From NCBI RefSeq assembly GCF_006345805.1, contig NC_043011.1:4898001-4962000 (forward strand): DNA of 64,000 nt, in the 5' to 3' direction. Shown one piece after another: positions 6,700 to 40,420 of this stretch. This DNA is from Octopus sinensis (lineage: Eukaryota). The notes beneath the pieces were generated by a model that saw only the letters and a program-made list of their open reading frames with translations, was not told the origin of the DNA and made no database searches. A program made the translations under genes and the position numbers. Position 1 is the stretch's first letter; each line of letters starts with the position of its first letter.

Positions 6700-6878
6700 C
6701 TACATACATTTTTGTTCTCTCCTTGTTTCTCTCCTTGTTTTTTCTGTGTCACTTTCTGTAGAAGAGCGTAGGCTCGAAACGTAAAAGACTTTTTCTATTC
6801 CTAAGCGTTATACTAATACATCTTTTTTTTTGTACACCACCTGTCTTCGTCTTTTGTTTTTTTCGTAAACTCTCCCTA
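6700..6878 (+). mobile_element. Related Penelope-like terminal fragment with HHR-like motif
   Basis: CTGTAGA-A-GAGC(GTAG)GCTC-GAAACGT...GCGTT; ends at (TA)n; paralogous to 34140-34315. Confidence 0.55.
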
Positions 6879-7189
6879 TATATATATATATATAGATATA
6901 TATTCTCTCCCTCCTCCCTTATTCCACTTCCGTTCTTTCCCTCTCCATCCGTCCCCCCCCTTTCTACGCTTCTCTATCTCTCTCACCCCAGCCCCCTCGA
7001 TTCTGTCTCTTTCTTCTCCTCCCTCGTCCACCTTCTCTCCCTTTTCATCTGTCCCTTTCTCCTGTCTTTTGTTCTCACGTGACAGCGAGCCGCTGTTGAG
7101 CGCTCTTTTCGTTTTCAGCAGCCTCAGAAGCAACACGTATTTGTTCGTCTCCCCGTGGCCTTTAGGCACAACTTCACAAGCCAGCCCCT

Positions 7190-7581
7190 ACTCAAATCGT
7201 CCTGTCGAAAGACCCTTGTCCTACGTCCTGGTTTTGTTTTGTTGTTTATTTTTTTTTTTTACCGTTATTGTTTTTACGTTTTTGTATTCTTATTGGTGTC
7301 ACGTATTCTGTATTTTTGTTTGTGTACTTCGATCGTTTTCCGTCCTTTCGTTGTATACATTCGAAGCTTTCTTCCAGGGGATCTAATGCGCTTGGCTTAG
7401 ATTTCCCTTGGCGGGCTGGCCATATCGGAGCAATCTCAAGATTAATCAGCCGAAATTGCTAAGTGATCTGGTTCTTGACTGATGACTGAGGGCTCGTTAA
7501 TGTCCCGTCCTGTGGTTCTTGTGTCGTCTCTGTGGTGTTTCATGTTCTTGTCCATGTCTGTATTTAATTTTACTGTTTACC

Positions 7582-7583
<2 letters not shown>
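7190..7583 (+). mobile_element. Penelope-like/retrozyme terminal fragment carrying the rearranged HHR
   Basis: Shares ordered motifs (TGTATACATTCG, TTCCAG, TAATGC, GCTTA) and a T-rich tail running into (TA)n with 40030-40420; boundaries approximate. Confidence 0.5.
7429..7489 (+). ncRNA. Candidate rearranged (non-circularly permuted) hammerhead ribozyme
   Basis: AGCAAT-C-TCAAGA..TCAG-CC-GAA-ATTGCT..TCTTGA-CTGATGA-CTGA. Stems III and I are perfect 6-bp helices in register with the core; stem II is 4 bp with 2 extra C. Confidence 0.65.
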
Positions 7584-7652
<69 letters not shown>

Positions 7653-14074: not shown

Positions 14075-14087
14075 CAAAGAGTGAGTC

Positions 14088-14205
14088 GCTTACAGCACTT
14101 AGGTTTCCCAAGCGATCACCCATCTAAGTACTCACGAGGCTCGATGTTGCAAAACTTCGTTGATCGGATGAGAACCGATGCTTTCAACGTGATATGGCCG
14201 TAAGC
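14088..14205 (-). pseudogene. 5S rRNA: Dispersed full-length 5S rRNA copy, probably a pseudogene
   Basis: Minus strand reads GCTTACGGCCATATCACGTTGAAAGCATCGGTTCTCATCCGATC...AGTACTTAGATGGGTGATCGCTTGGGAAACC...GTGCTGTAAGC (118 nt), with paired termini. It has several substitutions, no T4+ terminator, and is not in an array. Confidence 0.9.
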
Positions 14206-22202: not shown

Positions 22203-23539
22203 AAAAGATGTACTATTGTATAAAACTAAATAAACCAATTATCCTTTGAATCACCTTTTTGTCTGGAAAAGGGGTTTCCTTTCCTATCATTTAACTCATT
22301 TCATTTGCCTTTCTTTAGCAAAATATTTTTTATATTATGGCAATAATGGCCAACGGATTATTAATTTGTGTAGCAGCATCCTATAGAATGTTTTGTGTTA
22401 TTTGTTATTTGTTCCGGCTCTCAATCTGAGTTCAAATCCCGCTAAGGCTAACTTTGCCGCTCATCCTATTGTGTTTCACAAATTGACTCGTTTTAGCAGT
22501 GTATTAGCGTTATGTGTGAGAGTCGATGCCTGGCAGTTTCCGTATCGGCTTTATCCGTTTTGAGTTCAAATCCCACCGTCAGAATCAGTGTTGGGCTAAA
22601 GGCAGCCATAAACAAGTGTACAAGTATTGCAGCCGATCAGTCTCAGTACCAAAACACTTGCTGGTAGGAGACCATGCGAGCCAAAATAGTTCACCTCTGA
22701 GAACATAAGACTGAAGATCTAAAGATCCCGTTCAATTTCGGTTTTCGGCTTGACAATTTAGGAAGGCTTTGCTCTTAAAACTTTTATTACTGGATATCAC
22801 TTCGTCTGTGTTTACCTTATGAGTTCATATTCCGCCGAGGTCGACTTTGACTTTCACCCTTTCGGGGTCGATAAAACAAGTCCCAGTGAAGTACTGGGGT
22901 CGATGTAATCGACTAGCCTCCTCCAAAGAAATTTCAGGCTCTGTGCTTGTAGTAGAAAGGGTTAATGGATATCATTGTAGTTTAATTGACTTAGGGAGAT
23001 TGATAGAAATAATGGTTTTACCGGTGACATATATATATATATAAATCGCTACATAATCATCATTATAATAAGATTATGATTACGAGAGAATCTGGCGTTT
23101 CAGATTTAGTTCAGCATATCATATGAAACAAGTTTTGCTAATTTGTTACGTCACTTTATTTCCTGAGTTTAGCTTCATATGTCGATTTTGCCCTAAACAT
23201 TTTGGGAATCGAAACAATAAGTATCTGCCAGGTGTTGCACATCAAGTTTTCCTTGAAATGTGTGACTTTATGCCTAAATCTTGCTTAAAATGTTGGCCTT
23301 ATGACGAAGTTTTGTGTAATTATTGTTTAAGATTAGATTAACTTTGACTGGCAAAATCGAGAGTGAACTAAAATTGCTGGAGTCGAGTTTGTCTTTCATG
23401 ACACTGTGAACGAGAAAATAAGTACCAGTCAAGAACTGATCATGTTTTATTCGATTGTTCTGCTCTTCGAATTTTATGACCTCGCTAAAAATAAAGAAAA
23501 TATTGTTATGTGTAAACCATAAATAGCAGCTTTGCCGCC

Positions 23540-34139: not shown

Positions 34140-34314
34140 CAGATCATTAGCCAATACACACATTTTTTTCTCTCCTTGTTTTTTCTGTGTCCCTTTCTGT
34201 TGAAGAGCGTAGGCTCGAAACGTAAAAGACTTTTTCTATTCCTGAGCGTTATACAAATACATCTGGTTTTATACACCACCTGTCTTCGTCTTTGTTTTTT
34301 TCGTAAGCTCTCCC

Positions 34315-40029: not shown

Positions 40030-40420
40030 TATATATAAGTCAAAGTTAGGACAAAAAAAAACACAACAAATGGAAACCAATAAAACAGAAGAAGCGGGAA
40101 AATAGACGATAGTAGGACAAACGGTAAACAGGACCAAAACAAGATACTCGGATCATTCGCAGGCGATTTGCTCATCAGTCGGAGTCCGGAAAGTCCGTGT
40201 AGTTTCGCCCCCCTTGTCTTTGAGACTGCTCGAATCCGGCGGGCACCAGGGACTTAAGCTAAAAGCATTATGCATCTGGAAAAGGCAAACGAATGTATAC
40301 AAAAACGGAAACAGGAACAGAAACGAAAACGAAAACGAAAACGCTAGATTTATACATGTACAGCTGCTGTTTTTAGGTGGGAAGATAGGATGTAAGGTAA
40401 ACGAGGTTTTGCTTGCTACT
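40030..40420 (-). mobile_element. Diverged relative of the 7190-7583 element
   Basis: Same motif order on the minus strand, ending at a TA-rich tract; boundaries approximate. Confidence 0.5.
40170..40230 (-). ncRNA. Second, partly decayed rearranged hammerhead ribozyme
   Basis: Minus strand GCAGT-C-TCAAAGAC..GC-GAA-ACTAC..GACTCCGA-CTGATGA-GC. Strand order and spacing match 7429-7489. Confidence 0.55.

Follow-up and report, generated by a model that had tools for sequence, protein, structure and literature searches.

We identified a four-strand hammerhead ribozyme motif in a non-autonomous Penelope-like repeat of Octopus sinensis, and we put at roughly 0.8 the probability that it cuts its own RNA, with the cut predicted after C7435. 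The repeat copy lies at 6904-7587 on the plus strand of the window, by which we mean the whole stretch of 64,000 nt analyzed here (NC_043011.1, positions 4,898,001 to 4,962,000). The catalytic core is the known hammerhead core, and its letters are present in three strands at the coordinates given by an original prediction made from the sequence alone. As that prediction had it, the strands follow the order cut-site strand, GAAA strand, CUGANGA strand (S-G-C), separated by 4 nt and 12 nt. The claim of a non-circularly permuted hammerhead in a cephalopod-type repeat is upheld by the core order and by the genome-wide copies, and we retain the predicted cut position by analogy with known hammerheads. 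The strand order was already published as type SGC from metatranscriptomes (Eckert et al. 2023, PMC10085705). What is genuinely new is that the core is open between A9 and G10.1: the CUGANGA strand is not joined to stem II, because the partner strand of stem II is supplied from upstream.

Copies of the motif are abundant in the octopus genome (G000). A pattern in S-G-C order run on the genome against a reversed control, a check of the kind proposed with the original prediction, gave a strong excess: AWTC..CGAAAWT..CTGANGA, which requires no pairing, has 6,270 matches (3,141 + 3,129) as compared to 104 (49 + 55) in the control. A second pattern, with the lineage of the window element excluded, has 5,162 places versus 435 in the control and falls in several unrelated families. 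Together the two patterns give ~11,000 motifs in one genome after subtraction of the controls. Standard searches miss the motif, as had been anticipated: at the Rfam gathering threshold there are 0 hammerheads in the window, and at E<=10 a typical copy returns no hammerhead and only repeat-driven noise. Matches to the Rfam models of types I, II and III are missing, as expected for a non-circular strand order. Folding of the 81-nt stretch alone is no better than that of its shuffles (z = 0.38); with the upstream strand included, z is -3.69 for a typical copy and -1.76 for the window copy. A second, older family member with the same design is found in the window at 40172-40244 on the minus strand (element ~40030-40420), with other stem sequences, a GUC triplet, kink-turn spacing, a 4-bp upstream stem II and two mismatches in stem I.

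Stem II and the division of the core

Stem II is formed by 7414-7419 (GGCUGG) with 7446-7451, a pairing that gives the canonical G10.1-C11.1. We examined 114 distinct instances, among them some truncated or chance matches; stems I and III served to choose them, and nothing was asked for upstream. The 5 nt before G12 have an upstream partner at 5/5 in 57 of the 114 and at >=4/5 in 99, as compared to 66/2,248 and 574/2,248 with swapped partners. A partner at >=4/5 within 0-2 nt after CUGANGA occurs in 0/114 instances; the unbroken block C of type SGC does not occur in this set. In most families the upstream partner is positioned 21 nt before C17. Across 18 natural copies, which were picked by hand and whose 5' starts were set by hand at G10.1, a choice that favors stem II, 91.7% of the stem is paired, five of its six pairs show changes on both sides, and the covariation score is 0.843 versus 0.220 when shuffled (0/500) and at most 0.219 when slid. 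G10.1-C11.1 is kept in 17 of these copies and in 93 of the 114 instances. In this genome the design is common to six or more types of stem II sequence, which come with differing stems I and III. Within the lineage of the window element five stem II pairs are invariant.

The original prediction had drawn stem II as UCAG/CUGA and named two extra C between it and GAAA as its weak point. Of 74 lineage copies, only 19 form that pairing with four Watson-Crick pairs out of four, or 26 with G-U pairs allowed; it is broken in the other 48, and its letters 7486-7487 vary between subfamilies A and B, so we rejected it as the conserved stem II. Both of the C are core-proximal pairs of the stem II made with the upstream strand. 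Subfamilies A (13 copies) and B (26 copies) were collected by DNA similarity alone. Their commonest letters differ at N7, two variable bulge letters, IIIb, P1, P0 and 7486-7487, and among the fixed core and stems I, II and III the sole change is N7 (7483). In one family the CAG before G10.1 was considered as a 3' splice site, a reading that we discarded since this CAG is the 3' side of hairpin P1.

The covariation check on genomic copies that failed for UCAG/CUGA bore out stems I and III, both of which covary in register with the core, with the exception of the claimed sixth pair of stem III (A7429-U7460), which is A-U in only 20 of 114 instances. Position 3 of stem I is A-U in 67 and G-C in 36 of the 114, and the subfamilies carry compensatory changes in both stems (pairing was selected for in these instances, compensation was not). 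N7 and H17 vary freely among the allowed letters.

The 12 nt first described as a linker are a predicted kink-turn and a 7-bp extension of stem III. Stem III has 5 bp and is followed by a 3-nt bulge and GA, with GA opposite, and then by the 7-bp helix IIIb. Kink-turns of the Kt-7 type have a C-G closing pair, a 3-nt bulge with A at L2, tandem G-A/A-G pairs, and then U-G or U-A. By these rules the stem III/IIIb joint is likely a kink-turn, predicted from its letters and broken in the window copy. It resembles Kt-7 in the 3-nt bulge, the tandem G-A/A-G and the flanking helices, and differs in the U at 2n in subfamily E and one other family. The GA three nt after stem III is found in 106/114 instances (it was part of the second search pattern) and the opposite GA in 80/114 (it was in no pattern). 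Helix IIIb carries compensatory changes between subfamilies (U-A to C-G and A-U to G-C), bulge letters L1 and L3 differ between subfamilies, and in subfamily D stem III is longer on both strands with the spacing kept.

Two further helices flank the break in the core. Hairpin P1 ends 0-2 nt before G10.1 in 86/99 instances, with no gap in 57; the gap is 2 nt in the window copy, and most other subfamilies have a gap of 0 nt. P0 is the pairing of the strand that directly precedes P1 with the sequence that follows A9, and it is clean in several families (6/6 in L102, L131, L132, L150 and L151). The core, stem II, P1 and P0 likely form a four-way junction with its crossover at the A9/G10.1 link.

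Genomic copy ends and the proposed fold

Cutting of the RNA after C7435 would be expected to leave some copies that start at or just after 7436 and few that start just before. In a TA-junction sample (100 of 3,425 overlapping rows, making 29 loci), 5' ends counted by eye among the matches listed fall at 7436-7443 in 26/29 loci (13 at 7436-7441 and 13 at 7442-7443) and at 7421-7435 in 3/29. With the TA-like positions 7442-7443 removed, 13/16 ends fall in 6/21 positions (p ~2e-5, with an equal chance assumed for each position). The TA-junction pattern has 524 minus-strand matches, one per locus, suggesting ~1,000 such short copies. Patterns with two mismatches before the site gave 143 matches for 7436, 104 for 7439 and 87 for 7433. 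True truncations made up 30/40, 17/20 and 6/20 of the respective samples, corresponding to ~107, 88 and 26 ends, of which the 26 at 7433 pool three positions through TA microhomology. In a second, unrelated family, 75 of 95 loci among the matches listed (100 of 143 rows) end at or after its cut, over ~9 positions, and 20 end before it, over ~16 positions.

A 508-nt RNA contig (run X1) covers 7080-7532 of the window unbroken across the predicted cut; it fits uncut, antisense or circular RNA and is therefore uninformative, and its terminal letters resemble what we take to be a cDNA-synthesis adapter. RNA contigs from four runs, which carry no start, end, strand or level, were weighed neither for nor against cleavage.

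In the fold that we propose, the loop closed by stem III, which holds C17, the stem I strand, the linker, the stem II strand and GAAA, would kiss a second loop offering the CUGANGA strand and the upstream GGCUGG strand. A9 and G10.1, which are not covalent neighbors, would meet at the crossover of the four-way junction, and the kink-turn would turn stem IIIb around to face the outer ends of stems I and II. Tandem transcripts may be cut in this way into unit-length RNA. Part of the RNA would be copied as cut linear RNA by a Penelope-type reverse transcriptase (RT), giving short copies that end at the cut, and the remainder would be copied from circles or from multimers left uncut, yielding copies longer than one unit. 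Closure within one unit is suggested by the kink-turn and by the 21-nt spacing, which hardly varies across unrelated octopus families. We slightly favor such closure over docking on a neighboring tandem unit, to which we give nearly the same weight; tandem copies are common, and Penelope hammerheads often act as dimers (PMC4209133). Crude geometry speaks against closure within a monomer, which comes out as borderline for the octopus families and, with IIIb formed, as impossible for the Acropora and crustacean entries described below.

Table 1. Features of the motif in the window copy, with the pairing or evidence behind each.
Feature	Position in window	Strand	Pairing, basis or remark
P0 5' strand	7358..7373	+	Predicted partner 7486-7503; minimum free energy (MFE) fold of typical copy
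P1 hairpin	7374..7411	+	Ends 2 nt before G10.1
Stem II 5' strand (G10.1 = 7414)	7414..7419	+	Pairing and covariation across families
Stem IIIb 5' strand	7420..7426	+	Pairs with 7465-7471; in topology the counterpart of the helix by which stems I and II interact in type SGC
Predicted kink-turn, non-bulged strand (3n, G2n, A1n)	7427..7429	+	GA in 80/114; general kink-turn rules
Stem III 5' strand (U16.1 = 7434)	7430..7434	+	Pair table
C17; predicted cut 7435/7436	7435	+	Analogy to hammerheads; step in genomic 5' ends
Stem I 5' strand	7436..7441	+	Covariation
4-nt linker, outer ends of stems I and II	7442..7445	+	~3 nt in type SGC (PMC10085705)
Stem II 3' strand (C11.1 = 7451)	7446..7451	+	Pairs with 7414-7419
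G12 A13 A14 A15.1 and stem III 3' strand	7452..7459	+	Core letters, pair table
Kink-turn bulge (3 nt) and G1b	7460..7464	+	A2b missing in window copy, present in relatives
Stem IIIb 3' strand	7465..7471	+	Pairs with 7420-7426
Stem I 3' strand	7473..7478	+	Pair table
CUGANGA core (C3-A9)	7479..7485	+	A9 not followed by stem II
P0 3' strand	7486..7503	+	7493-7498 altered in window copy; first 4 nt are the stem II strand of the original prediction

The host repeat and the Naiad elements

The window element is a solitary, 5'-truncated copy, belonging to subfamily A, of a repeat of ~780 nt. About 85 nt are absent from its 5' end, its fixed 3' end passes into (TA)n at 7582-7608, (TA)n also lies ahead of the copy, and the hammerhead motif is located 150 nt before the fixed 3' end. 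Copies of the youngest subfamily are 93-98% identical, with variable 5' truncation and (TA)n at their ends, and they often lie in partial head-to-tail tandems (unit length 772-795 nt in tandem loci). The 50 bases 7414-7463 have 528 exact copies in the genome, and 55 of 100 among the matches listed, counted by eye, are in same-strand tandems. No long open reading frame (ORF) was found in the repeat unit (longest ATG ORF <=132 aa in two 3.2-kb tandem loci), nor was an ORF of the Naiad type with N-terminal GIY-YIG and RT, and we do not class the element as a Naiad. The damage private to the window copy is a missing A after 7463 and altered letters at 7493-7498. Being solitary and truncated, with the kink-turn A missing and P0 altered, this copy is probably impaired; alternatively, it may contain assembly errors.

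The anatomy of the repeat fits non-autonomous Penelope-like elements or non-LTR (long terminal repeat) retrozymes (PMC8557442; preprint 10.64898/2026.07.22.740005). The latter, proposed to be non-autonomous Penelope derivatives with dimer-dependent cleavage in many cases, share with it non-coding tandem units holding one hammerhead each (PMC4209133; preprint). The motifs of retrozymes and of Penelope pseudo-LTRs (pLTRs) are of type I, their palindromic stem III is weak, and type I descriptors served to find them, mostly in vertebrates (PMC4209133; preprint), whereas in the octopus motif stem III is long and stable, the strand order non-circular and the core split. The repeat is non-coding and 5'-truncated, with a fixed 3' end and partial head-to-tail tandems, as a retrozyme or non-autonomous Penelope-like element should be. 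It holds no type I hammerhead in each unit, and is thus retrozyme-like in its likely working and outside the published definition (preprint).

At similar positions in subfamilies A, C, D and E despite 20-30% divergence, the repeat holds a GNRA-capped 3-bp hairpin (7204-7213 in the window), possibly a tertiary contact, and a CACGTG palindrome (7076-7081), possibly a promoter site. At the unit junction of the tandem locus L017 (163-170 and 943-950) the fixed 3' end falls on TATATAA inside the tandem unit, which could double as a TATA box and as priming homology to (TA)n targets. Classical type I minimal motifs of Penelope style with a palindromic stem III are present at 6750-6790 and 34191-34230 on the plus strand. 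In these and in most related copies U replaces A6, and CUGAUGA is kept in 2/16 matches in the sequences examined; this family is probably decayed or inactive. The element studied here is inserted in the TA tail of the type I element at 6750-6790. Elsewhere in the window, 14087-14205 on the minus strand is a full-length 5S rRNA match (76.6 bits) adjoining a TA repeat, either a 5S pseudogene or a 5S-derived repeat, and 22680-22750 is a weak tRNA-like match.

Naiads have (TA)n targets, partial tandems and 5' truncation (PMC8557442), in which the window element resembles them; it differs in having no ORF and no detectable sequence similarity to the loci compared. They were reported without canonical hammerheads, with 10 'HHR_core' and 8 'HHR_half_core' cases flagged, including Naiad_Ovul and Naiad_Esco (PMC8557442). 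We examined the Naiad consensus file in the supplement of that paper by motif, covering 60/62 places with CTGATGA, 30/43 with CTGAAGA, 23/23 with CTGACGA and 25/25 with CTGAGGA; the remaining places come after the Naiad part of the file, and motifs running across line ends escape this count. By eye, not by computation, the split-core design with P0 and P1 is present in 10 of 54 Naiad consensus entries: Naiad_Obim, Naiad_Ovul, three from Acropora, and five placed by file order (a ctenophore, Clytia, two near Morbakka, and a crustacean). Those outside cephalopods have plain bulges of 1-7 nt in place of the kink-turn. Intact type CSG, so far known from two metagenome sequences (PMC10085705), was seen by eye in six entries of supplement parts 13-16, namely Naiad-2_Nbra, Naiad-3_Nbra and four placed by order among nematodes and arachnids. 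Five more Naiad places (parts 17-19) hold the core and fit neither form by eye; they may be further permutations.

The 3' ends of Naiad_Obim and Naiad_Ovul have the design of the window element in other sequence, and in the genome, copies of the octopus Naiad family have RT fragments that precede the motif and share its strand. Among four Naiad-like ORF fragments, Pfam gave a weak RVT_1 match (E 0.001) in one and nothing in the other three; a further three fragments gave no family under E 0.05. The window element and the Naiads share design, not sequence, and the motif is likely the ribozyme thought to be missing from Naiad transposons. We hold it rather probable that the 'missing' hammerhead of Naiads is present across animals as a kissing-loop ribozyme: as intact type CSG in nematode and probably arachnid Naiads, and, in elements of ctenophores, cnidarians, crustaceans and cephalopods, as a seventh topology whose core is opened at A9/G10.1 by a four-way junction. 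In octopus this form would drive over ten thousand non-autonomous repeats, with the kink-turn as a hinge and with copy ends that record cleavage in vivo.

A Penelope-like family found beside one motif was tried as the autonomous parent and rejected, having no such motif in its 3' untranslated region and no similarity to the window element; its closeness to the motif looks like a consequence of shared (TA)n targets. This family (L203 1532-3877, G000:C1) is young, has a 781-aa frame (RVT_1, CxxC, C-terminal GIY-YIG) and at least 150 close matches, and ends in (TA)n. It is Neptune-like, and no more than a candidate for the helper of the window element.

Comparison with known hammerheads, alternatives and significance

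The survey of Eckert et al. (PMC10085705), which searched RefSeq 85, recovered type SGC from metatranscriptomes alone, two cases of CSG from metagenomes and a single weak GCS from a bacterium, and it assumes CUGANGA with its two adjacent stem strands to be an unbreakable block. Types SGC and CSG, of the same kissing topology, cleave in vitro and require an extra helix (PMC10085705). The octopus motif shares with them the order S-G-(I+CUGANGA), a short stem I-II linker, an identical core, the kissing-loop topology and an extra helix, here IIIb with its compensatory changes, that links stems I and II on their other sides. In types SGC and CSG block C is intact, whereas the octopus motif takes stem II from upstream and has P0 and P1 at the A9/G10.1 link, and its IIIb, unlike their helix, is joined to stem III on both strands via the kink-turn. 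Types SGC and CSG come from metatranscriptomes and metagenomes and none from a eukaryote genome, whereas the octopus motif resides in a genomic retroelement with thousands of copies. The original prediction had mentioned rearranged hammerheads in Xenopus Penelope-associated repeats; PMC10085705 was the only match in a literature search for 'rearranged hammerhead', and its main text gives no Xenopus or Penelope case. Reports of a permuted hammerhead that includes a kink-turn were looked for, and none was found. The literature consulted, outside which most subscription papers lie, holds no non-circular hammerhead in an animal, no split core and no octopus repeat with a hammerhead; PMC10085705 and the preprint have supplements that could bear on this.

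Several observations weigh against the four-strand hammerhead. The MFE structure of the single strand does not show stems II and III together, because the two stems cross. A compensatory sixth pair of stem II predicted for subfamily D proved to be a G-A mismatch, leaving 5 bp secure, and the ways in which the 18 copies were started and the 114 instances selected favor stem II and stems I and III, respectively. P0 is only moderately above its controls, both in one test (47/99, versus 552/1,875 or 29% swapped and 293/1,980 or 15% shuffled) and in a second (69/86 or 80%, versus 1,741/3,434 or 51%), and it is loose or imperfect in subfamily A. The 5'-end counts were made by eye, are blurred by TA microhomology and have no baseline further downstream, and the majority of ends of the second family are within its linker or stem II, with a step at the cut of only 16 in 3 positions versus 9 in 6. 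The window element has no BLAST match (E 1e-3) in 43 Naiad-like, Neptune-like or other-family loci, a sample of the Penelope-like families of the genome. Insertions between A9 and G10.1 are of at most 1-2 nt in PMC10085705, core insertions in PMC3088659 are of 1-2 nt only, and no natural hammerhead with helices between A9 and G10.1 was found in the literature consulted. In favor of the motif, a 1-nt insertion at this link is known (PMC4209133).

That so many ends are placed within the linker or stem II and not at the cut would also be expected if a real, selected structure did not cut at all and served as a ribozyme-derived handle for RT or a kink-turn-binding protein, the 5' ends marking where the enzyme stalled. 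Many Penelope hammerheads cleave poorly in vitro (PMC4209133), and 8/9 Xenopus retrozyme dimers gave no product (preprint 10.64898/2026.07.22.740005). We nevertheless consider this explanation unlikely: exactly the catalytic letters are kept while N7 and H17 remain free among allowed letters, two unrelated families both have their drop in ends at the H17 bond, and an enzyme moving 3' to 5' on the RNA should meet the structure near 7500 and not near 7436. It is quite improbable that the motif is an ordinary type SGC hammerhead with block C intact and UCAG/CUGA as stem II with two bulged C, as originally drawn. That pairing can form in subfamilies A and E, where it may be a side conformer, and one other family has a downstream alternative rich in G-U. 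However, it is lost in most lineage copies as counted above, it differs at 7486-7487 between subfamilies A and B where 7414-7419 do not, and it provides no G10.1-C11.1, whereas the upstream partner is kept in all unrelated families. That one repeat acquired the arrangement by chance and was amplified with no selection for the RNA fold would account for a short stretch that folds like its shuffles, and the copies are not independent. We give it very little credence, since the design is kept by the various stem II types of this genome, recurs in Naiad consensus sequences of several phyla and is accompanied by covariation between families, which contradicts chance.

Provided that it cleaves, the four-strand hammerhead would overturn the assumption of a contiguous CUGANGA and stem II on which the six-permutation scheme rests, and would be a natural hammerhead combining a four-way junction with a kink-turn. 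Within the literature searched it would also be the first non-circularly permuted hammerhead in a eukaryote genome. Naiad hammerheads would then have been overlooked because descriptors could not see them, which, if true, would resolve the puzzle of a clade so abundant while apparently lacking the hammerheads that other Penelope elements have. Because copy ends mark the predicted cut, what hammerheads do in Penelope transposition becomes testable. With ~11,000 motifs from two patterns in a single genome, censuses of invertebrate ribozymes may be far too low.
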